Assembly: GCA_035510575.1 (NCBI GenBank)
Contig: DATKGV010000008.1
Span: 4,618 to 68,617, forward strand
Source: Minisyncoccota bacterium
Lineage (GTDB): Bacteria; Patescibacteriota; Minisyncoccia; Phycocordibacterales; UBA9973
Direction of reading: 5' to 3'
DNA: 64,000 bases
Below the pieces are notes generated by a model. It was given only the letters and a program-made list of their open reading frames with translations. It did not search any database and was not told the origin of the DNA. Numbering within the stretch: position 1 is the stretch's first letter; every line of letters starts with the position of its first letter. The position numbers and the translations under genes are program-made. This document shows, piece by piece, positions 1,913 to 58,455 of this stretch.

Positions 1913-2497
1913 TTATTCATCCACGCCGAAACGCTTGTAGTCCAAGATTTTTATTTCTCCGAACCAGTGCTTAATTTCATGTTCAGCTTCTTCGGGGGTT
2001 TCGGAGCAATGAACTATGTTCATCACAGCTCGCTTTTCCATATTGGCAAGCGCCGGACTGTCAATGGAAAAGTCCCCGCGAATCGTGCCCATATCGGCTT
2101 TATACGGCATCGTATCTCCCGCTATTTTGCGAACCACGTCCACGGCGTGAACGCCTTTGACTATCATTTTCACAAGCGGAGCCGAAGTCATGTAGTCAAT
2201 AAGCCACTTGCGTATTTCAGGACCGATCTTCGCCGGATCGGCAGTGCCAAAATCTTTCACGGCATCATAGCCATATTTTTCATAGGTAGTCATAGTTTTT
2301 TGTCCGAGTCGAGTAACCCATTCTTCATTTTTCGGATAATGGTCATTAACTTTATCAAATGACGGATTAAACATTTCAAGAGCCACAATTTTAAGATCGC
2401 GCTGCTCGAAACGCTTGATAACCTCGCCGATAAGCCCTTTGCGGACTCCGTCGGGCTTCAGCATTACGTATGTAACTTCTTCTTTTGGATGCTTCAT
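1913..2497 (-). CDS. ndk: nucleoside diphosphate kinase (with internal insertion)
   Basis: The N-terminal 'TYVMLKPDGVRKGLIGEVIKRFEQRDLKIVALE' segment matches the NDK nucleotide-binding region. A C-terminal 'HCSETPEEAEHEIKHWF' segment resembles the NDK active-site His region. Longer than canonical NDK. Confidence 0.7.
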   Translation of the reverse strand: MKHPKEEVTYVMLKPDGVRKGLIGEVIKRFEQRDLKIVALEMFNPSFDKVNDHYPKNEEWVTRLGQKTMTTYEKYGYDAVKDFGTADPAKIGPEIRKWLIDYMTSAPLVKMIVKGVHAVDVVRKIAGDTMPYKADMGTIRGDFSIDSPALANMEKRAVMNIVHCSETPEEAEHEIKHWFGEIKILDYKRFGVDE

Positions 2498-2567: not shown

Positions 2568-5294
2568 TTACTGTCTATATTTTTCCATTATCTCCTCTTC
2601 TATCTCGGCGCGGTCGCGGCCGTATTTCAAATATGACAGCTCCTTGATCTTATCAACGATTTCCATAATGCCTTGCGCAGGCGAATATGTTTTTATATTG
2701 AACGGCTTGGTCGGCTGGCCGTTTATGAGCATTGATAAATAAGCGTTGTAGTTTTCAATTTTCATAATATCGGCTGCCGTAAAGACCGGCTTGAATTTGC
2801 TTTCAAGGAATTGCGCATCATCGGCTCCAACTCGGAAAACCGCCATTGATCCAACGTTGCCGAAGACCGCATCTTTTATATTTTCTTCGAGCTGAGCTAT
2901 GTATTGATGCGCCACAGTCAGCGACAGGCGATATTTGCGGGCTTCAGAAAGTATGGATTCAATTGAATCAGTTGTTACGTTCTGGAATTCATCTATATAA
3001 AGATAAAAGTCCTCCATTTTTTTGCCGTACATATCCACGCGCGAAAGCGCCGCCATCTGTATTTTGCCGACAATCAGAAGCCCGATCAGATTGGCGTTAA
3101 TATCACCCAGGCGCCCTTTTGAAAGATTAACTAAGAGGATTTTCTTGCTATCCATGATGTCTCGGAAATTAAAGACCGATTTTTCCTGAAGAACGACCGG
3201 GCGCATAATGTCATTTGAAATAAAATTATCAAATTTGGAAGTTATATACGGCACGAAGTTAGCCAAGCTTTGTTCGCCTGTTGTTTGCTCGGCATTTTTC
3301 CAGAATTGAGTAATAATAGGATTCTTGCAATGCGACAGCTTCATGTCTCGAAAGGCCTTGTCTGAAAGAACGCGCCCGATTTCAAGCAACGTTGAACCGC
3401 TCTCGGGATGTTCCATCACAAGAAAGGCCGAGTTCTTGAAATATTGCTCGAACATCGGGCCGCCGGAGGTTTTCATATCAAAAAGCTTGTTGAAAATGCT
3501 CATCAGTTCGTTCACTACGAATGTCTTCTGCTCAGGATATTTAGGATCATACTCAAGCATGTTCAAGCCCATCGGCCGCGGAGTGTATGCCGGATCAAAA
3601 TAAATAACGTCATCAATTCTTTCCTTCGGTATATAGCTTAAGATATCCTGAATATCGGTTCCATGAGGATCGATATAGCATACTCCATGCCCCATTTCTA
3701 TGTCCTGGGCAATCATATTCTTCATAATAGTTGTCTTGCCAGTACCCGTCTGTCCGATAACATATAAGTGGCGCATGCGATCTTCCGGGGCAAAATGCAC
3801 TTCCGTATCTTTGCCTCTGTAACTATTAACGCCTAGAACAACGCCCTTGTTTCCCATTTCAATCGGCGCCGGCGCAATACCGGCTCTGGCTTGTTTGAGC
3901 TGAGGCGATGACGCTATACCGTAAGGAAAATGGAAAATTGTCGCCAGTTCTTTCAAGTTTAGCGGCATTCCGTATTTATTGGAAAATGTTCTATAAGAAA
4001 AATCGTGGACCAAATCATTCAGCTCGCCTCCCTCCAAGTTATGAAAATTAAATCCGTTGCGGTCAGCTTCGGTAAACTGGTTGAACGATGATTCAATGTC
4101 GGCAAGAATCTGCTTGGCGCGCGAGCTCGTTTCAGCTGAAGCGATTATGCGGATATTCGCTCCCATAATAGTGCTCTTTAATTTCTCTGTAATATTTTCC
4201 ACCGCTTTGTCATTGACTTTTTTCTCTTTGTTTTTTGAAGGGCCGAATATCATTTCCTTGGCAATAGAGCCGAAGCCCTTGGCGAATTGGCGAGTCATGT
4301 TTCCTGCAGTCCGAACCGACATGCCTTCTTTGACATCAGAGAGAACTATGTGGAATTTTTTGATGATTTCATCATCTTCCGGGCATATTATGAATTGAAT
4401 AGAAGCTCCTTCGCCTGATTTTTTCAGCTTGGTAAAAACATTCAATATAATATTAAGCGGATCATGATCAAGCGCATCATAGAGCTTTATCGGATAAACT
4501 TCATGATGAGCAAGCGTAGCATATGAGCCGGCCACAGCCCCGCCTTCAGTAAAAATATTATAGTCATCCGGAACTTCCACGACTTTAGCGTTCGGATGCA
4601 CGCCAAGAAGCTGTTTCTCGAACAAGTCGGCTTTGTGCGCCGGCACTGCGGCATAGAATATGAATTCGTCGCTATTTTCAGATAAAGCTATCTCAAGAGC
4701 AAAATGATTGCGGCTGTAATTTTCCCGCCCTTCGCCCACGGAATGCATGCCGGCATAGAATTGCTCCATCGCTCCCAATAATTCTTTCAACCCTTTTTTG
4801 TTATTTTCATCAGTTGTCGGATCAGGAAGCGTAATTTCAAATAATTTCATATCAAGGGACTTGAAAAGAGGCGTACCTTCCTTAAGCCCCGGAATCTTAT
4901 GAGTGCTTGATAAATATTGGACCAAGAAACGATGGAAATCGTCGTCCAAATGCGGATTATTCATTTTTCTGACTATTGATAAAGTGCTTGAGATTCCTTT
5001 ATCAAGCAGAAGTCCTAGCATTTCTTCCATTTTCCTGTCATGAGCTTCAGGATGAAGGCGCAAAATCAGCTTCTCGGCTTCATCTATCGGTATGAGATTT
5101 TTATCATACATTACCTCTTCGGGTTCATACTCCTTGTATTCTTGAATTACATTACTCGCCAGCTCTTCGTGACTTACTTCCTGCCCTTCTTGCTTAAGAG
5201 CTTCCTCTCGTTCTCTTATATGTGCGCGCAAAAACTCCAGCTCTTCCTGCGGGCTTTTGAATTTCGGCGCATTGTTTAAACTAAAATTCTCCAT
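2568..5294 (-). CDS. large P-loop ATPase of the TraG/TraD/VirD4 (T4SS coupling protein-like, FtsK/HerA superfamily) type with an unknown roughly 450-aa N-terminal region
   Basis: 908 aa. Walker A 'GQTGTGKTT', Walker B-like 'LYIDEFQN', and a following 'TVAHQ' motif typical of T4SS DNA-transfer ATPases. N-terminal half has no recognisable motif. Confidence 0.45.
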   Translation of the reverse strand: MENFSLNNAPKFKSPQEELEFLRAHIREREEALKQEGQEVSHEELASNVIQEYKEYEPEEVMYDKNLIPIDEAEKLILRLHPEAHDRKMEEMLGLLLDKGISSTLSIVRKMNNPHLDDDFHRFLVQYLSSTHKIPGLKEGTPLFKSLDMKLFEITLPDPTTDENNKKGLKELLGAMEQFYAGMHSVGEGRENYSRNHFALEIALSENSDEFIFYAAVPAHKADLFEKQLLGVHPNAKVVEVPDDYNIFTEGGAVAGSYATLAHHEVYPIKLYDALDHDPLNIILNVFTKLKKSGEGASIQFIICPEDDEIIKKFHIVLSDVKEGMSVRTAGNMTRQFAKGFGSIAKEMIFGPSKNKEKKVNDKAVENITEKLKSTIMGANIRIIASAETSSRAKQILADIESSFNQFTEADRNGFNFHNLEGGELNDLVHDFSYRTFSNKYGMPLNLKELATIFHFPYGIASSPQLKQARAGIAPAPIEMGNKGVVLGVNSYRGKDTEVHFAPEDRMRHLYVIGQTGTGKTTIMKNMIAQDIEMGHGVCYIDPHGTDIQDILSYIPKERIDDVIYFDPAYTPRPMGLNMLEYDPKYPEQKTFVVNELMSIFNKLFDMKTSGGPMFEQYFKNSAFLVMEHPESGSTLLEIGRVLSDKAFRDMKLSHCKNPIITQFWKNAEQTTGEQSLANFVPYITSKFDNFISNDIMRPVVLQEKSVFNFRDIMDSKKILLVNLSKGRLGDINANLIGLLIVGKIQMAALSRVDMYGKKMEDFYLYIDEFQNVTTDSIESILSEARKYRLSLTVAHQYIAQLEENIKDAVFGNVGSMAVFRVGADDAQFLESKFKPVFTAADIMKIENYNAYLSMLINGQPTKPFNIKTYSPAQGIMEIVDKIKELSYLKYGRDRAEIEEEIMEKYRQ

Positions 5295-22604: not shown

Positions 22605-22865
22605 TTATTTATAAATATCATGGTCGCCAACTCCCAATATAGCTGCTTTATTTTTATTTTCATATTGAAAAATAATTCGATAGGCATAATTAACTGAAAA
22701 ACCATAACAATTCTTATATTGGCCATTCAATTTATGAACTTTTAAAAGCTTATGATTCGAAATATTTTTAAACAGTTCAATTTTTTCTAAAACTTCTTCT
22801 TTCAAGTTATCATCTAATTTTCTAAAATTTCTAACAAAAATTGGAGCATAGATAATTTCAATCAT
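22605..22865 (-). CDS. type II toxin, RelE/ParE superfamily
   Basis: 86 aa. The C-terminal 'YRIIFQYENKNKAAILGVGDHDIYK' matches the RelE/ParE consensus (YRIIY...I..IGHRKDIY). Overlaps an upstream RHH gene by 1-2 nt. Confidence 0.6.
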   Translation of the reverse strand: MIEIIYAPIFVRNFRKLDDNLKEEVLEKIELFKNISNHKLLKVHKLNGQYKNCYGFSVNYAYRIIFQYENKNKAAILGVGDHDIYK

Positions 22866-22866
22866 A

Positions 22867-23088
22867 CTATTTGAATTTTTTAGCTAATTCCCTTAAATCT
22901 CCTGATAATCCCTTTCCCAGAGATATTTCTTTTTGAGCTATTAAAATCGCATTTACAGCTTCTTCTTCCGCAAGGCGGGTTATGGCGCGGCGAACGACAT
23001 CGGCTTTGTTCGAGCCATAGCCGGATTTTACCAGATTATTTAATTCCTTTTCTAATTGATAAGGCAATGGAACAGATATGGTAGTCAT
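22867..23088 (-). CDS. ribbon-helix-helix (CopG/ParD-like) antitoxin
   Basis: An 'MTTISVPLPYQLEKELNNLVKSGYGSNKADVVRRAI' RHH N-terminus. The ORF track start at 23121 runs into the operator palindrome, so the internal Met is the probable start. Confidence 0.55.
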   Translation of the reverse strand: MTTISVPLPYQLEKELNNLVKSGYGSNKADVVRRAITRLAEEEAVNAILIAQKEISLGKGLSGDLRELAKKFK

Positions 23089-23118
23089 AATATTTCTCAA
23101 TTTATTAAACTTATAATA

Positions 23119-23150
23119 CATATGATAATATCATATGATATTATCATATG
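23119..23150. promoter_or_regulatory. perfect 32-bp palindrome CATATGATAATATCATATGATATTATCATATG; candidate operator for the RHH antitoxin
   Basis: The sequence equals its own reverse complement and sits 30 bp upstream of the antitoxin start. Confidence 0.6.
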
Positions 23151-23210
23151 CAATAGCCCGGCAGTCCTAACCCATTCCGCATTTCTTGGTAATAAATATC
23201 AGCTTTCTAA

Positions 23211-23250
23211 CCACTAGCAAGAACCACTAGCAAGAACGGTTCTAGCTAGT
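23211..23250. repeat. REP-like palindromic repeat at the 3' side of the RAYT gene (one full 26-bp unit, 23225-23250, plus an upstream half unit)
   Basis: 'CCACTAGCAAGAAC|CACTAGCAAGAACGGTTCTAGCTAGT'. The unit forms a roughly 12-bp hairpin (ACTAGCAAGAAC / GTTCTAGCTAGT). Confidence 0.7.
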
Positions 23251-23928
23251 GGGTTCTATTATAAAATAATTCTCTATAAAATCTTTAAAAGATTGCTGTG
23301 ATTGGAAATAATCGGGAAATGCTTTTTTATTTAAAATATTACTTTCTATTCTGTCTGTGCCTATATAATCTTGATAACTGGAATATCTGTATGTTTCTAG
23401 AAAATCTTTCATTTCTTTATTATTTTTGTCTTTGTCTTTATCTTGTTTTTCCCAACCTGAAAACTTAATATCAAGTACATTTAGATGAATATATGCAAAA
23501 AGCTGCCGCATATAGTTATCATCTGCTTTTATACATTTTGATTTAAAGAGTCCGCCAAACAAAGCTCCTTGTCTTTGGTATTTTTTGTTAAAAAACATTG
23601 AATATCCTACACCTATCTTCCTCATGAACTTTGTTATTCCTCCATCTACTTCCTGCTTAACTAATATATGAAAATGATTATTCATAAGGCACCATGCGCC
23701 AATAGAAACTAGCGGCTCGCTTTTATTTAAGATCATTATTTCTTCATATCCCTTATGAAGAATATTTATTAAATTATCTAGTTTAATTGCTTCCTTATTA
23801 TTTGCAATATATAAAAGCATTTTAAATCTCTCGAAATCTCTTTCAAGCTTAAAAATGACTCTTTTATCTATACCCCTATTATAGATATGATAATATTCAC
23901 CGGTTATGAATGAATCTTTGCGAAGCAT
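23242..23928 (-). CDS. IS200/IS605-family Y1 (HUH) transposase, REP-associated tyrosine transposase (RAYT)-like
   Basis: 228 aa with 'YYHIYNRGIDKRVIF', HUH motif 'NHFHILV' and the catalytic-Tyr region 'AYIHLNV' (YIHxNP-type). Flanked on both sides by the same palindromic repeat. Confidence 0.65.
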   Translation of the reverse strand: MLRKDSFITGEYYHIYNRGIDKRVIFKLERDFERFKMLLYIANNKEAIKLDNLINILHKGYEEIMILNKSEPLVSIGAWCLMNNHFHILVKQEVDGGITKFMRKIGVGYSMFFNKKYQRQGALFGGLFKSKCIKADDNYMRQLFAYIHLNVLDIKFSGWEKQDKDKDKNNKEMKDFLETYRYSSYQDYIGTDRIESNILNKKAFPDYFQSQQSFKDFIENYFIIEPTS

Positions 23929-23954
23929 GTTTACAGTATAACAAACACCTTAGC

Positions 23955-24116
23955 CACTAGCAAGAACGGTTCTAGCTAGTCCCCAAGGCGGTTTTTATCT
24001 TATACACTAGCAAGAACGGTTCTAGCTAGTCTCGGCAATTCCAGCTACCCACTAGCAAGAACGGTTCTAGCTAGTCCTCACTATATATTACCTATAGCAA
24101 GAAAGGTCTAGCTAGT
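23955..24116. repeat. array of four REP-like 26-bp palindromic units (CACTAGCAAGAACGGTTCTAGCTAGT; the last is degenerate) separated by 19-24 nt unique spacers, at the 5' side of the RAYT gene
   Basis: Exact copies at 23955-23980, 24005-24030 and 24050-24075. Degenerate copy at 24095-24116. Confidence 0.7.
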
Positions 24117-24123
24117 CTCATCA

Positions 24124-24156
24124 AAAACCGCCCCATCAAACATAGGGGCGGTTTTT
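24124..24156. terminator. bidirectional Rho-independent terminator (AAAAACCGCCCC...GGGGCGGTTTTT)
   Basis: GC-rich 7-bp stem flanked by A-run and T-run. Followed by a second palindrome TAGCAAGGACCGTCCTTGCTA (24161-24181) related to the REP core. Confidence 0.6.
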
Positions 24157-24200
24157 GATTTAGCAAGGACCGTCCTTGCTAATCTGTAGCTTTAGCTTTT

Positions 24201-25620: not shown

Positions 25621-25821
25621 CTATCTCAATAGAACTATTTTTGACATTTTGCTTTTCCGTAATTTTTCATTGACATCCATTCTTTTATAAAGATTAAAAG
25701 AATTTGAGCCAATAGACGCTGTTCTCATTACAAAATATTCATAACCTTCTTTCTTTGCCCATTCTAAACGTTTTTGAACCAACTTTGATCCTATGCCTAG
25801 ATGTCGATATTTATAATCCAC
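25621..25821 (-). pseudogene. GNAT acetyltransferase C-terminal fragment (truncated remnant)
   Basis: 66 aa containing GNAT motif A 'RHLGIGSKLVQKRLEWAKKEGY' but lacking the N-terminal ~80 aa of the fold. Confidence 0.45.
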
Positions 25822-26484: not shown

Positions 26485-27009
26485 TTAATTTTTTATTATT
26501 TTTTTTGTTATTATAGCACCGTCATTCGTTTTTAAACGAAGAATATAGGCGCCTACTTTTAGATTCTGACCATTGATTATAAAGTCTTCAGTTGACTGAC
26601 TTGTCAATTGAGTACTTACAATCTGACCAGTAAGAGAGAATACATCAATACTTTTCACTTCTAAATTAGTCCTAAGTGAGAAATTACTTGATGAAGGGTT
26701 GGGATACACACTGACTTGATCAGTATTAGTTACAGTTTTAACATCGGTTGCCGATGTGTCATAAATGAAACTAAATCCAATAATATCAATGTCTTTTCCT
26801 GCATTGGTGTGGATAACAAAATTAAATTCACCACTAGAAGCTATTGGCAATGAAATATCCTTAAGGAGAAATTTCTGGTAGCTACCATCTGCAAGTACAG
26901 CACTAACTGTATTGACGTCATCTTGAGCGCTTATCCTTGATAAGCCAAATGACAAAAGTATCGTAACGAGTACGAACACTCTTTTCAGAAAGAGAATTTT
27001 TGCTTTCAT
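26485..27009 (-). CDS. secreted protein with a C-terminal beta-sandwich sorting-domain-like tail (T9SS type-A-like 'YPNP...' segment)
   Basis: Signal peptide. The C-terminus 'VYPNPSSSNFSLRT...GAYILRLKTNDGAIITKKIIKN' resembles Por/T9SS C-terminal sorting domains. Confidence 0.4.
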   Translation of the reverse strand: MKAKILFLKRVFVLVTILLSFGLSRISAQDDVNTVSAVLADGSYQKFLLKDISLPIASSGEFNFVIHTNAGKDIDIIGFSFIYDTSATDVKTVTNTDQVSVYPNPSSSNFSLRTNLEVKSIDVFSLTGQIVSTQLTSQSTEDFIINGQNLKVGAYILRLKTNDGAIITKKIIKN

Positions 27010-33041: not shown

Positions 33042-33082
33042 CAAGGACGGTTCTTAAGAGAGTTTCCCCAAGAACCGTCCTT
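33042..33082. repeat. 13-bp perfect inverted repeat AAGGACGGTTCTT...AAGAACCGTCCTT downstream of hppA
   Basis: Shares the GAACGGTTCT core with the REP units at 23955-24116 and the palindrome at 24161-24181. Confidence 0.55.
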
Positions 33083-33094
33083 AATTACACATTA

Positions 33095-33122
33095 AAAAAT
33101 CCCTCAGTTGAGGGATTTTTTA
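33095..33122. terminator. bidirectional Rho-independent terminator AAAAAATCCCTC-AGTT-GAGGGATTTTTT
   Basis: Perfect 6-bp GC-containing stem flanked by A6/T6 runs, between convergent hppA and the 33138-33770 gene. Confidence 0.65.
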
Positions 33123-33137
33123 ATGCAAAGTTACAAA

Positions 33138-54618: not shown

Positions 54619-57600
54619 ATGGCAGGTATGACAAATGAAGTTCCCCCAAAAACTAAAAATAAAGAAATTGCACACGCAGATAAAGTTAATGCCCGCATAG
54701 AAGAAGTCAAAAAAAGACAAGTAGAACTTGCTGAATTAATTAAATCGCCAAACAACAAGATGGCTATAGAAGAAAATAATGAGCTTGTAAAAGAGGCGTT
54801 ATCGCTTGATAAAGAATCAAATATAATAAAAACAGAATCTCTAGAAAAAACAAATAAAAAAGCATATGAAATATATGAGAAGAGAAAAAGAGAGGGAAGA
54901 GAGGGCAATGAAAAGACAGATTGGGAACAAGCTGAAAAAGAATTAAATGCAGATAACGAAAAAAAGACGGGGAAAATTAAAGAAAACATAAATTTTGACC
55001 TCAATAAAAAAGATGAAGAGAAAAATAAGAAAATTCTTGATAACAAATTAGTACAGGCAGGATTAAGTAAAGATGATTTTAAAAATATTCCAGAGTGGAA
55101 TGATCTTTCGGCTGGACAAAAAATGCTCGTGGTTGAACAGGCCTCTCAAGATACTCTTTCGCGTGTGAGAGAAATAGGAGAAAAGAATTTTCAAGAGAAA
55201 AATAAGCTTTCAATAAAAGATCCAAAAACATTGCCCAAAAAGATTCTTCATCGTTTATTTAAAAAAGTTTGGATTAGCAAGGAAGAAAAAAGCGTTATTG
55301 AGGATGTGCGAAACGGCAAAATAAAACCAGATGAAGAAAAATTAAAACAGTTGGCGGAAAGAACTGCTGATATGGATTTAAATGCCACTATCAAAGATGG
55401 CAAGGCAAGTGTTGAATTCATACCAATCGATAAAAGTTTATCAAAAGAACAGCAGGAAGTTGTTGAAAATTACAATAAACTTGCAAATGAATTCTCTAAA
55501 ATGCCTGACTCTTGGAAGAATGAGAAAGCTGCAGCAAGCAAGAAAAGTAATTTATTTAATAAAAATAAGTCAGAACATTACGACAAATATAAAAATATAG
55601 AATTACAATATAATGAAGCGCTTAAAACATTACTTGAATTGAAGGCAAAGAACTACGATCCAAACACTATGATTCAAACTTCAAATGGCGTATATGAAGA
55701 ATCACAAAAAGTTGCAAAAGAAAAAGCCATGCTTGAAATGAAAGATAGCGATTTTAATGTAGCCATGCTTCAATTCACAAATACTAATCCAGATGCCATA
55801 GAAGAATTAAATAAAATACGAAATGAAAGTTCATGGGGAAGATTGGTAAATAATGAAACCATCTGGCGAGGATTATATATGGGTATCGGCTATGGCGCAC
55901 GCAAGGGATTAACATATTCTTTTGGATTGCTTGCAGCGCCAATTGTCGCTGGAACTATTGGAGGAATTCGCGCTCGTGAGAAAGCCAAGCAAAAAATAAA
56001 TACGGCGTTCATGGAAGGACGCAATGAAGAAACATTTTTAGAAAGAAAAGAAGCGGGCAAAAAAGGAGCAGTTGATGATAAAAATAAAAATACTGGAATT
56101 ATTTCAAAAGTGTTTAGCGGTCAAAAAATAAATACCAAAGAAGTTGCCGCTTTTGTGGATGCTGACAGTCAGATGCAAAGATTGAATAATATAAAGCAAA
56201 AATTAGAAAAAGTTAGTTCGAAAGAAGAAAGATTTAGATTAAATTCTGAACTTTACCATCGCTTGAGTTTTGTTGAAGAAAAACTTCAAAAGGGTCTGAT
56301 AAATTATGGAACAAAGAATGCTATTGGCAAGAATTATGAGCTGTTAAAAATTTTAGGTGAAACGTCAATACAAATCGCAGAACCTTCTCCAGATTTAATA
56401 AAAGAAGATAATAGGCGCCATGAATTGCTCCAAAAAATAATGAAAGATAATGAAGCTAAGCTGGGAAGCAAGCAAGCTATCATTAAGAATCAAGAAATGC
56501 TGCGAGGCATGGCAGTCAGCGCAGGATTTGCAACTCTTGGATTTTATATTCGTGAATTTATGCATCATGGCGCACCGACTATAGGCGCTCATGCTGGTGC
56601 AATTAACGCGCATATTGAAAACGGCCACTTGATAAAAAATATTGATGCAACGCAGGCGGATAAGCCATTGAATGAAGCAATGATGAAAAACTATTTCCCG
56701 AATACGAAGCTCGATAATGAGTTGCATGAAAATATTTTAAATCCTGATGCAGTTGTCCATAAAGGCGAAGGAATAGAAAGCACATTCATCAGGCAGATTC
56801 AAAATAATCATGAATTGGCAAAATCTCTCGGATTCAAGGGAGATGCAAATGATGCAAATGCATTACATGAATTTGCCGGACGCGAAGCGCATATTTTGGC
56901 GATAAAAGAAGGATATGTAGGAAGTGATGGACAAGAAATAAGAGTTGCAGATGCAGACAAAGTGGCTTATGAAATAAAAATGGAAAATGGGCATGCGGTC
57001 ATTAATGAGAAAACCGTCGATGGGAAAATAGTTGAAACGCATCATGAAGGAGATAAATTTGAAGCGACAAAAGCAAATAAATATGAGAGAGTTCATACAA
57101 ATGAAATAAAAAAAGTTGAAGTAGAAAATGAAAATAATGAAAATATAGATAGTACGAAAACAGAAGAGGTAACGGAACCTAAGCCAATATCAAAAAATAT
57201 AAGCGGCTACGATTTCAGCAATAAGGAAAAAGCAATTGCCGACTTTGATGATGTGAGCGAGGAAACAAAAGGCACTTACGCGGAGGATTTGATGAAAGTT
57301 AACGATGATCCGACGGAGCAGAATGATGTGGGCAAGGCCCTGATTGCTTTGCGTGAGACAGTTAAAGCAAACACTGGCAAATTGATTAATCCAAATCCTG
57401 ATGAAAGCTTGCATGATTACGTCCATAGATTGATGAACGCCGATTCAAATGCGCCGACAGAAAAAATAGGCAGGCCGAATTTTGAAAAGATGGAATCAAT
57501 ACCTGCAAAAAATGTCGGGGTAGAACATGCGCAGACAGCACAGCCAAAAATTAGGCAAGTTGAAGATAATTATATTAAAAATGATTCAAGCATAAATAAG

Positions 57601-58455
57601 ACGCCCACTAATATTGATGGAAAAACGACACTTTCGGCATCAGAAGCAAATAGATTTTCTGATTTGGCTAGAGAAAATAAAATTCTTGATGCACATATAA
57701 AAGAAGATAATCCGTTCAAAGGAGAAACTTTTGCGTCTGATTCTACACATTATAGGCAAGTCGGCTTTGGTGAAAGCAAGGATCTTGAAATTGCAAGAAA
57801 AATTGCCAATACTGATTACAGAGCAAAGATTGCCATGGAAAGCGGCGTAATTAAATTAGGAGCATCAAATGATATGGAATTGCATGACCTTAAAGAAGTA
57901 GTCATGCAAGACAAAACAACTGGTTTGTATCATGTTTATCATGCAGTTGAAGTTGATAAACCTGCATCGTCAGTTAGTGGTACTGAACATATCGCCGTTG
58001 TTGAGAATAAAGCTAATATACATGAAAATAATTATGAAAAATTTCATAAAGCATTTCCGAATAGCGAGCAGGTGCATGGCATGCCTCGCGCAGAATATGA
58101 CAGCAAGGTTGAAAATTATCTAAAGAGTAAAGGAATAACATGGGCAGATGATGCTAAACGAGATACAGATTTATGGCTATGGGAAAAATTTGGAAAAGTG
58201 GATCCAATGCAGAGTCCGGATGAGAATCCGCTCTGGCAATTGGCAAAAAACAGCAGAGACCCTTCTGCTCTGGACTTAATGGAAGTTGGAAAAGATGAAG
58301 GAAATAAATACAGAGTTGGACAGGAACTTGTAAAGCTCTTTAATCTTGTTAAAGTTCAGACAGGAGAAGAAATATATCCGAATATAAGCCCGGTTGAAAC
58401 TCCTAATGAATACGTTTATCGTTTGATAGAAGCGCTTGAAAGAAAAAACTCTTAA
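54619..58455 (+). CDS. giant (1278 aa) Lys/Glu-rich coiled-coil protein with two central hydrophobic helices. Unknown function.
   Basis: Long uninterrupted ORF with strong AT-rich codon usage consistent with the genome. Predicted TM segments around residues 420-450 and 640-660. Confidence 0.55.
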   Translation: MAGMTNEVPPKTKNKEIAHADKVNARIEEVKKRQVELAELIKSPNNKMAIEENNELVKEALSLDKESNIIKTESLEKTNKKAYEIYEKRKREGREGNEKTDWEQAEKELNADNEKKTGKIKENINFDLNKKDEEKNKKILDNKLVQAGLSKDDFKNIPEWNDLSAGQKMLVVEQASQDTLSRVREIGEKNFQEKNKLSIKDPKTLPKKILHRLFKKVWISKEEKSVIEDVRNGKIKPDEEKLKQLAERTADMDLNATIKDGKASVEFIPIDKSLSKEQQEVVENYNKLANEFSKMPDSWKNEKAAASKKSNLFNKNKSEHYDKYKNIELQYNEALKTLLELKAKNYDPNTMIQTSNGVYEESQKVAKEKAMLEMKDSDFNVAMLQFTNTNPDAIEELNKIRNESSWGRLVNNETIWRGLYMGIGYGARKGLTYSFGLLAAPIVAGTIGGIRAREKAKQKINTAFMEGRNEETFLERKEAGKKGAVDDKNKNTGIISKVFSGQKINTKEVAAFVDADSQMQRLNNIKQKLEKVSSKEERFRLNSELYHRLSFVEEKLQKGLINYGTKNAIGKNYELLKILGETSIQIAEPSPDLIKEDNRRHELLQKIMKDNEAKLGSKQAIIKNQEMLRGMAVSAGFATLGFYIREFMHHGAPTIGAHAGAINAHIENGHLIKNIDATQADKPLNEAMMKNYFPNTKLDNELHENILNPDAVVHKGEGIESTFIRQIQNNHELAKSLGFKGDANDANALHEFAGREAHILAIKEGYVGSDGQEIRVADADKVAYEIKMENGHAVINEKTVDGKIVETHHEGDKFEATKANKYERVHTNEIKKVEVENENNENIDSTKTEEVTEPKPISKNISGYDFSNKEKAIADFDDVSEETKGTYAEDLMKVNDDPTEQNDVGKALIALRETVKANTGKLINPNPDESLHDYVHRLMNADSNAPTEKIGRPNFEKMESIPAKNVGVEHAQTAQPKIRQVEDNYIKNDSSINKTPTNIDGKTTLSASEANRFSDLARENKILDAHIKEDNPFKGETFASDSTHYRQVGFGESKDLEIARKIANTDYRAKIAMESGVIKLGASNDMELHDLKEVVMQDKTTGLYHVYHAVEVDKPASSVSGTEHIAVVENKANIHENNYEKFHKAFPNSEQVHGMPRAEYDSKVENYLKSKGITWADDAKRDTDLWLWEKFGKVDPMQSPDENPLWQLAKNSRDPSALDLMEVGKDEGNKYRVGQELVKLFNLVKVQTGEEIYPNISPVETPNEYVYRLIEALERKNS

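Follow-up and report, generated by a model that had tools for sequence, protein, structure and literature searches.

Which kind of genetic system is formed by a short, regular array of palindromes beside a transposase gene? The question is raised by a stretch of 64,000 nucleotides (nt) from a Minisyncoccota bacterium (assembly GCA_035510575.1, contig DATKGV010000008.1), referred to here in its whole length as the window, in which a gene for a 228-amino acid (aa) Y1 HUH enzyme lies between copies of a short imperfect palindrome. The arrangement invites comparison with repetitive extragenic palindromes (REPs), with insertion sequences (ISs) and with CRISPR arrays. The locus is probably a unit of the REPtron or TIRtron kind, that is, a domesticated single-copy class-2 Y1 HUH gene between copies of its cognate hairpin. 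On the best-supported account of the repeats, local amplification has multiplied the hairpin on the gene's 5′ side, and copies have been scattered elsewhere in low to moderate number.

The Y1 enzyme and its flanking hairpins

The gene, its promoter and the hairpins around them are as follows, in window coordinates.

23242–23928, minus strand: Y1 HUH enzyme gene, 228 aa; HUH motif N84-H85-F86-H87, catalytic tyrosine Y146 in YIHLNV, YSSY tail motif
23929–23963, minus strand: Y1 promoter (promoter scan); −35 TTGCTA at 23963–23958, 17 nt, TG-extended −10 TATACT at 23940–23935, 6 nt, ATG
23212–23224: extra half-arm CACTAGCAAGAAC abutting the 3′ hairpin (repeat search; Tandem Repeats Finder period 13, 2.2 copies)
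23225–23253: 3′ hairpin, with the exact 25-mer at 23226–23250; the final T-S codons of the Y1 gene and its TAG stop fall within one arm
23955–23980: 5′ hairpin copy 1, proximal, exact, overlapping the −35
24005–24030: 5′ hairpin copy 2, exact
24050–24075: 5′ hairpin copy 3, exact
24092–24116: 5′ hairpin copy 4, decayed, with three substitutions and one deletion
24120–24159: symmetric terminator-like hairpin with 15-bp arms and T-runs on both strands (inverted-repeat and terminator scans), ending the upstream 400-aa gene
24161–24181: solo perfect palindrome with the sister core TAGCAAGGAC-C-GTCCTTGCTA (AGGAC.GTCCT); −9.3 kcal/mol, z = −6.9
33042–33082: possible distant relative, a hairpin with 13-bp arms (AAGGACGGTTCTT) and a loop of 14–15 nt, just after an H+-pyrophosphatase gene

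A sequence-only reading had described the gene product as a 228-aa HUH/Y1 transposase, and this was borne out: the protein scored 29.8 bits against Pfam Y1_Tnp (PF01797; cut-off, 23), and its NHFH motif (residues 84–87) and Tyr146 of YIHLNV are invariant across the family alignments. The family consensus is comprised of NHFH, YIHLNP and the YSSY tail motif within a protein of ∼225–240 aa. Searches returned 1,723 homologues, the closest 120 at 68–79% identity and, where named, all from Paceibacterota, Nomurabacteria or Parcubacteria, and the family extends to 17,220 representative clusters at E ≤ 1e-3 (462 at E ≤ 1e-30). An AlphaFold2 model built on a diverse 81-sequence alignment had a mean confidence (pLDDT) of 93.9; a shallow 20-sequence alignment gave 42 and was not used. 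The top Foldseek match of the model was 4ER8, the structure of Escherichia coli TnpAREP with a REP hairpin (E = 1.2e-5), and the IS608 and ISDra2 TnpA structures ranked behind it, with 4ER8, 2VJV and 2XQC all at a probability of 1.0. A profile of the 81 sequences also returned 4er8 as its top match in the PDB (E = 0.016), aligned from the HUH motif to YIxxNP; this depth was required, as a 16-sequence profile reached E ∼0.7, and phmmer with the single Y1 sequence found nothing relevant in the PDB.

Because the consensus tyrosine motif is Y---NP and not Y---Q, the protein is supported as a class-2 Y1 HUH enzyme, akin to the REP-associated tyrosine transposases (RAYTs), and not as an IS200-type TnpA; Table 1 of PMC6006769 gives Y---NP for class 2 TnpAY1 and Y---Q for class 1 (IS200). 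The accessible text of the same paper (Quentin et al. 2018) characterizes subclass 2.1 by NH[YF]H, Y[IV]HLNP, an SS tail motif and a median length of ∼238 aa. All four features are found in the Y1 family, an agreement of motifs and not of phylogeny, and on these sequence motifs the protein appears to fit subclass 2.1 better than the E. coli-type RAYT subclass. This subclass corresponds to RAYT Group 1 of Bertels et al. (2017, PMC5581495) and largely to the TIRYT family of Di Nocera et al. (2013, PMC3733652), as far as the consulted parts of these papers go. The earlier label of a RAYT-type enzyme is thus retained for class 2 and for the best structural match, 4ER8, but not for the E. coli type. 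Assignment of the protein as an E. coli-type RAYT equivalog was considered and rejected, its score against NCBIfam REP_Tyr_transpos (31 bits; cut-off, 80) being far under the cut-off.

The 25-mer ACTAGCAAGAACGGTTCTAGCTAGT has four exact plus-strand matches in the window, starting at 23226, 23956, 24006 and 24051, with 0 copies expected from 100 dinucleotide-preserving shuffles. The minus strand is matched only at three mismatches, so all copies share a single orientation. The repeat unit is an imperfect palindrome: a single A.A mismatch, read as T.T on the gene-sense strand, splits its stem into parts of 6 bp and 4–5 bp. On that strand the window copies follow a GAG or GGG, and as single-stranded DNA the unit folds with −6 to −7 kcal/mol (z ∼ −3.5 to −3.8). 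A search of the array against Rfam gave no family at threshold. The one and a half copies claimed for the 3′ side were recovered as the exact copy and the half-copy listed above. Together they form an arm-arm-loop-arm arrangement that allows two alternative hairpins, of which the longer, using the half-arm, is preferred (−13 kcal/mol, z = −5.4).

On the 5′ side, four regular copies with spacers of 19–24 nt had been proposed. The array is real, but it consists of three exact copies and one decayed copy, with spacers of 24, 19 and 16 nt and a period of 50, 45 and 42; the decayed copy folds weakly (−3.3 kcal/mol, z = −1.2). The first spacer (23981–24004), as read from the letters, resembles the right arm of the nearby terminator. 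With the terminator-like hairpin as its outer boundary, the array is enclosed by this terminator on one side and the Y1 promoter on the other. Just beyond it, the palindrome at 24161–24181 had been taken for a relative of the core; it is indeed a related palindrome, but of a different core, the type found beside the Y1 gene in each of the three closest relatives. The hairpin at 33042–33082, also put forward as a core relative, is not a copy: both of its arms are G.T hybrids of the AGAAC and AGGAC cores, and its membership in the hairpin family is uncertain. It is the first of two hairpins after the H+-pyrophosphatase gene (33042–33123), the second (33096–33123) having the classic look of a terminator, a stem between runs of A and T.

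Cognate hairpins in orthologues and solo copies elsewhere

The relation between gene and palindrome was followed in 16 orthologues with readable upstream flanks (61–100% identity), located on other Paceibacterota and Nomurabacteria contigs. A hairpin adjoins the promoter in all 16 and is present at or near the stop codon in every orthologue with a readable 3′ flank. In 13 of them the core is GC(A/T)AGAAC-S-GTTCT(T/A)GC the outer stems being variable. AGGAC-N-GTCCT, a compensatory double change, goes with the three proteins closest to that of the window (P0004, P0009 and P0011). Members of the window's sub-clade retain a mismatch at stem position 7, either T.T or T.C. Three paralogues at ∼40% identity have wholly different hairpins of their own at both ends, such that the hairpin sequence shifts with the protein clade, from the AGAAC type to the AGGAC type to unrelated hairpins in the paralogues. 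Since orthologues share their hairpin flanks while these paralogues carry unrelated ones, the data support the flanking palindrome as cognate to the Y1 gene.

Gene and hairpins are also interlocked at both ends. In the window, the proximal 5′ hairpin contains the −35 in its right arm, and the 3′ hairpin contains the stop codon (23242–23244); in the orthologues, the stop codon is often the TAG of the outer arm of the hairpin. In each of the 13 orthologues of the AGAAC type, the hairpin's right arm provides a −35-like TTGCnn located 16–18 nt (17 nt in ten) from a −10-like hexamer, and in the three AGGAC-type relatives the −10 comes 6 nt after the hairpin arm. The distance from the −10 to the ATG is exactly 6 nt in all 16, with no Shine-Dalgarno sequence, and the Y1 mRNA is for this reason probably leaderless. 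The geometry suggests a leaderless transcript whose predicted promoter is overlapped by the putative recognition hairpin of the enzyme itself, an arrangement that could provide feedback.

Extra half-arms like that of the window were also found in L018, L031, L134, L098, L059 and L087. In a relative at 77% identity (L148, 3860–4800), a module that runs from the hairpin through the promoter into the Y1 gene, of which it takes in the first 41 nt, occurs three times, upstream, at the real gene start and downstream of the gene. Each copy ends at the same nucleotide (...TACTATCA), a hint that the gene may contain a defined site of breakage.

Solo copies of the core, mostly extragenic, were found in many other contigs. 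A degenerate-core scan of metagenome contigs gave at least 139 sites in at least 120 contigs. Among the matches listed, to which the following counts refer, a Y1 homologue adjoins 23 sites, and the stretch examined around 114 others contains none. The stem extends at least 2 bp past the core in 97 of 139 sites, compared with ∼6% by chance, and an extra half-arm lies beside 17 of these 97 hairpins. Of 63 non-redundant solos with sufficient flanking sequence, 50 are outside open reading frames (ORFs) of at least 150 aa, many within tens of nt of a gene end. In the 135 distinct hairpins, six outer stem pairs stay paired through compensatory changes, with a covariation of 0.247 as compared with 0.095 after shuffling (0/500) and 0.05–0.09 in slid controls. 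Taken together, the solo copies suggest a low to moderate copy number, although metagenome contigs cannot give a count per genome.

Solo hairpins were also considered as mobile promoters or operators, and this was rejected for want of −10 phasing: a −10 box was found at spacings 16–18 only five times across 150 directions, equal to background. Of three other GTDB species genomes with the exact 21-mer core, one (L006) has two intergenic sites, one of them a 1-mismatch copy, in an 8-kb stretch with no Y1 gene. In the other two the hairpin is located inside the T-box leader of ileS (L007, 467–600, hairpin at 512–536; L008, ∼2230–2400, minus strand). The leader scored 42 bits against the Rfam T-box (E = 3e-8, under the gathering score) and has an ultrashort stem I with an AUC Ile specifier in its loop, the exact 25-nt palindrome being in the stem II region; as the two leaders are near-identical, they were counted as one event. 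In two unrelated contigs, a GNAT acetyltransferase gene lies between two palindrome copies (L006, 3508–4344, hairpins at 3508 and 4320; L057, 5164–5892, hairpins at 5164 and 5876), and the window holds a 66-aa GNAT-like fragment at 25621–25821. In L100, L116, L127, L132, L147 and L121 an orthologous hairpin resides within a ∼380-aa ORF (e.g. L100, 10601–10625), where L132 has G as the central base and some of the samples have C, the difference that flipping of the palindrome centre would produce.

Each exact protein was seen in a single genomic context. An identical Y1 protein (P0001) was found in five metagenome assemblies, in one neighbourhood and with the same four exact repeat copies (L001–L005). 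The relative P0111 has a single context in the 10 places listed from 24 contigs, and the relative P0070 a single context in the 6 places listed from 14 contigs. The Y1 locus differs between species, and the proteins of different species are 60–79% identical.

Readings of the locus

The locus is most readily compared with two known systems. The nearest in arrangement are the TIRtrons that Di Nocera et al. described. With the TIRYT, subclass 2.1 and Group 1 proteins, the Y1 family has in common a length of ∼225–240 aa, NH[YF]H, Y[IV]HLNP, a C-terminal extension bearing an SS motif and an apparently low copy number; and, as in the accessible text of PMC3733652, the repeats lie on both sides of the gene, can be self-complementary, and are moderately abundant and found in dimers or clusters. 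The window differs in that a clear hairpin, with core GCAAGAAC.GTTCTTGC, forms its flank and the common TIR motif GGGGWSAS is absent, and in that Paceibacterota, a lineage of the candidate phyla radiation (CPR), is not among the taxa listed for TIRYT subclasses in the parts consulted; the same parts of the TIRYT, subclass 2.1 and Group 1 papers make no mention of a −35 in the hairpin or of the probably leaderless geometry. The E. coli REPtron, which consists of TnpAREP/RAYT and its REPs or bacterial interspersed mosaic elements (BIMEs) (PMC3333891, PMC3479197, PMC8266576; 4ER8), provides the best structural match and the same plan: an apparently single-copy Y1 gene edged by several cognate hairpins, local amplification beside the gene, an internal hairpin mismatch (in the sub-clade of the window) and solo copies that are mostly extragenic. 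Unlike TnpAREP (165 aa), the window protein has 228 aa, and the two are ∼14% identical; unlike the species-specific E. coli REP, the hairpin core is conserved over many species.

The mechanism would follow that of characterized relatives, for which binding of a folded hairpin, a stem irregularity, and tyrosine-linked cleavage and rejoining are known (PMC3333891, PMC8266576); the E. coli enzyme binds single-stranded REP and not double-stranded DNA, and requires the stem mismatch (PMC3333891). By analogy with TnpAREP and IS608 TnpA, the enzyme probably binds the folded single-stranded hairpin, for example on the lagging-strand template, and it may cut near the hairpin foot through a 5′-phosphotyrosine link and rejoin the strands. 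The T.T mismatch on the gene-sense strand could make the enzyme specific for strand and orientation, the role that the mismatch in REP plays with E. coli TnpAREP. Repeated processing over time would seed solo hairpins, extra half-arms and local clusters, and the three exact copies and one decayed copy of the window, at a period of 45–50 bp, may represent such a local amplification, analogous to a BIME cluster. As the proximal hairpin holds the −35, its occupancy or extrusion probably feeds back on expression of the enzyme.

Several points weigh against a REPtron- or TIRtron-like unit. The match to REP/BIME arrays proposed earlier stands with respect to cognate hairpins and extragenic solos, but there is no GT[AG]G foot as in E. 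coli REP, no conserved tetranucleotide being found beyond the stem in 135 aligned hairpins among the matches listed, and the copies are direct repeats, unlike the alternating REP/iREP of a BIME. Classical REPs exceed 100 copies per genome. Here the copy number appears low: the exact 21-mer core was found in the genomes of three other GTDB species with one exact copy each, and the other ∼63 kb of the window contain no further exact or 1-mismatch copy of the core, with two distant relatives only. The arrangement works like a REPtron but fails canonical REP/BIME on the foot, the alternating orientation and a demonstrated high copy number. Within the metagenome scan, 42 of the 139 sites listed have no stem extension and may be chance matches. 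The array is identical across the five metagenomes. The protein departs from the family in reading YIHLNV, in which the N is kept and the P of Y---NP is replaced by V, and its REP_Tyr_transpos score is low, as noted above. Finally, the hairpin of most family members is fully symmetric, its 16-bp core being conserved in sequence, a pattern for which a dimeric double-stranded-DNA binder is an equally good explanation.

The main rival is an autonomous IS200/IS605-like element, in which the hairpins would be the subterminal left and right ends of a ∼0.75-kb unit moving as single-stranded DNA and the solo hairpins would be remnants similar to miniature inverted-repeat transposable elements (palindrome-associated transposable elements). 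The unit does share the Y1 HUH fold and one-strand hairpins at both ends with IS608 and ISDra2: the hairpins are asymmetric and in the same orientation, the unit is very compact, with the −35 in its left hairpin and the stop codon in its right, it resides at different loci in different species, and the head-to-tail partial repeats of L148 (hairpin, promoter and gene start) recall end junctions. Elements of the IS200/IS605 family typically have several near-identical copies per genome and a TnpA of ∼150 aa with Y---Q, often with tnpB. In all cases examined, however, a single locus per genome was seen (5, 6 and 10 places listed), the species' proteins are diverged to 60–79% identity instead of being near-identical copies, and the protein has Y---N(P), 228 aa and a conserved C-terminal extension, with no tnpB-sized ORF next to the Y1 gene. 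Solo hairpins far outnumber full units (114 compared with 23 sites among the matches listed), and the predicted structure appears nearer to TnpAREP than to IS608 or ISDra2 TnpA. Bertels et al. place Group 1 among the more IS-like RAYT groups in the consulted part of PMC5581495, which favours this reading; on balance an autonomous IS is considered unlikely, although it is the strongest of the alternatives. A clearly weaker candidate is a host cis-element, such as an operator of a dimeric protein, a transcript hairpin or a terminator, with the Y1 gene borrowing the operator and the array being repeated operators. It would account for the symmetric 16-bp core conserved in sequence across species, for its overlap with the Y1 −35 at fixed geometry, for the many solos within ∼60 nt of gene ends and for the copy that is part of the ileS T-box leader. 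It does not account for solos that lack a −10 at promoter spacing, or for an outer stem that pairs while its sequence varies, as for a folded hairpin and not for base-specific contacts to duplex DNA. Moreover, the hairpin type follows the Y1 clade, with wholly different hairpins in paralogues, the half-arm duplications are typical of hairpin processing or slippage, and the window array, between terminator and promoter, is probably not transcribed.

Two further readings are more remote. The Y1 enzyme and hairpin might serve streamlined CPR genomes as a system for site-specific recombination of single strands, working at the level of the host, which would take up, duplicate or exchange small hairpin-bounded cassettes in its neighbourhood. 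The GNAT genes between hairpins, the adjacent toxin-antitoxin pairs, the triplicated L148 module and the ileS T-box hairpin are hints in this direction, and the system would then be functionally comparable to integron attC sites but HUH-driven, leaving hairpins co-opted into RNA leaders; it is regarded as improbable. A degenerate or miniature CRISPR array is suggested by three to four palindromic repeats of 25–26 nt with unique spacers and a regular 45–50-bp period, and the sequence-only reading had warned of just this confusion while holding that the spacers should match no phage or plasmid. The likeness is superficial. CRISPR-Cas loci have cas genes nearby, spacers of ∼26–72 nt and arrays that vary between strains; here, the ten largest ORFs (Pfam) and seven ORFs (PADLOC) gave no Cas or defence-system match, the spacers are just 16–24 nt and the array is unvarying among five samples. 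The same repeat also stands on the other side of the gene and solo elsewhere, IMG/VR gave no exact match to the spacers of 24 nt and 19 nt, and Rfam gave no match. Taken together, these data exclude CRISPR with near certainty. Insertion or duplication that recurred locally, with later drift, accounts better for the unique spacers than acquisition of the CRISPR type does, given the resemblance of 23981–24004 to a terminator arm and the triplicated module of L148.

For annotation, the locus is therefore not a CRISPR and the gene not a plain "IS200 transposase". On the preferred reading of a domesticated gene with its cognate hairpins, REP/RAYT-type systems extend into Paceibacterota, where, the genomes being very small, a conserved HUH enzyme with its hairpins is unlikely to be mere junk. 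The family rules are unusually clean, with the −35 in the hairpin (in the AGAAC majority), the ATG 6 nt past the −10 and the stop codon often in the 3′ hairpin. In its accessible text, PMC6006769 (Quentin et al.) reports no REP-like structures for subclass 2.1, and a 2.1-like clade with a conserved hairpin partner is thus a useful addition and not a new kind of system. The family may serve as a compact model for what class-2.1 Y1 enzymes recognise, no DNA partner being assigned to them in the literature as consulted. A search of the accessible literature found no paper tying RAYT or IS200-type enzymes to CPR bacteria and none with the palindrome of the window.

Genomic neighbourhood

The Y1 unit of the window sits between the gene for a 400-aa secreted-looking protein and a ribbon-helix-helix (RHH)/ParE toxin-antitoxin pair, followed by tuf and rpsJ. 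The pair (22605–23155, minus strand) consists of an RHH antitoxin and a ParE/RelE toxin and comes after the 3′ hairpin; a perfect palindrome of 42 bp lies over the start of the antitoxin. Similarity between the 5′ segment of the Y1 gene and this operator palindrome (23112–23155) was noted and dismissed as likely chance in AT-rich DNA. Elsewhere, an MNT/HepT pair comes after the Y1 gene in L149 (4773–5607), and a solo hairpin is located just upstream of the promoter of a MazE/AbrB-like antitoxin in L041 (1335–1400). In E. coli strains that have lost tnpAREP, hicAB has taken the place of the gene (PMC3333891).

Two comparisons of upstream flanks were discarded. L149 and L150 have an identical Y1 gene and identical downstream genes but different upstream genes (upstream of 4001). 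Their breakpoint, past a small divergent ORF of 49 aa, is ∼200 nt away from the hairpin and ∼255 nt ahead of the ATG, and it is no evidence of hairpin-mediated exchange. Upstream synteny between the window and L009 was likewise not upheld, the two ∼400-aa upstream proteins being unrelated.

Three other genes of the window merit mention. A 1,278-aa ORF (54619–58455, plus strand) with no Pfam or PADLOC match lies in a stretch of strong AT and GC skew. A 908-aa protein (2568–5294, minus strand) has the domains of VirD4/TraG-type coupling proteins (T4SS-DNA_transf, TrwB_AAD_bind and TraG-D_C). A 174-aa protein (26485–27009, minus strand) has a type IX secretion Por_Secre_tail sorting domain (TIGR04183, 45.7 bits), a Bacteroidota-type signal that is unexpected in a CPR genome; the gene stands beside the same neighbours in three other assemblies, L002–L004, and is thus no chimera peculiar to the window.

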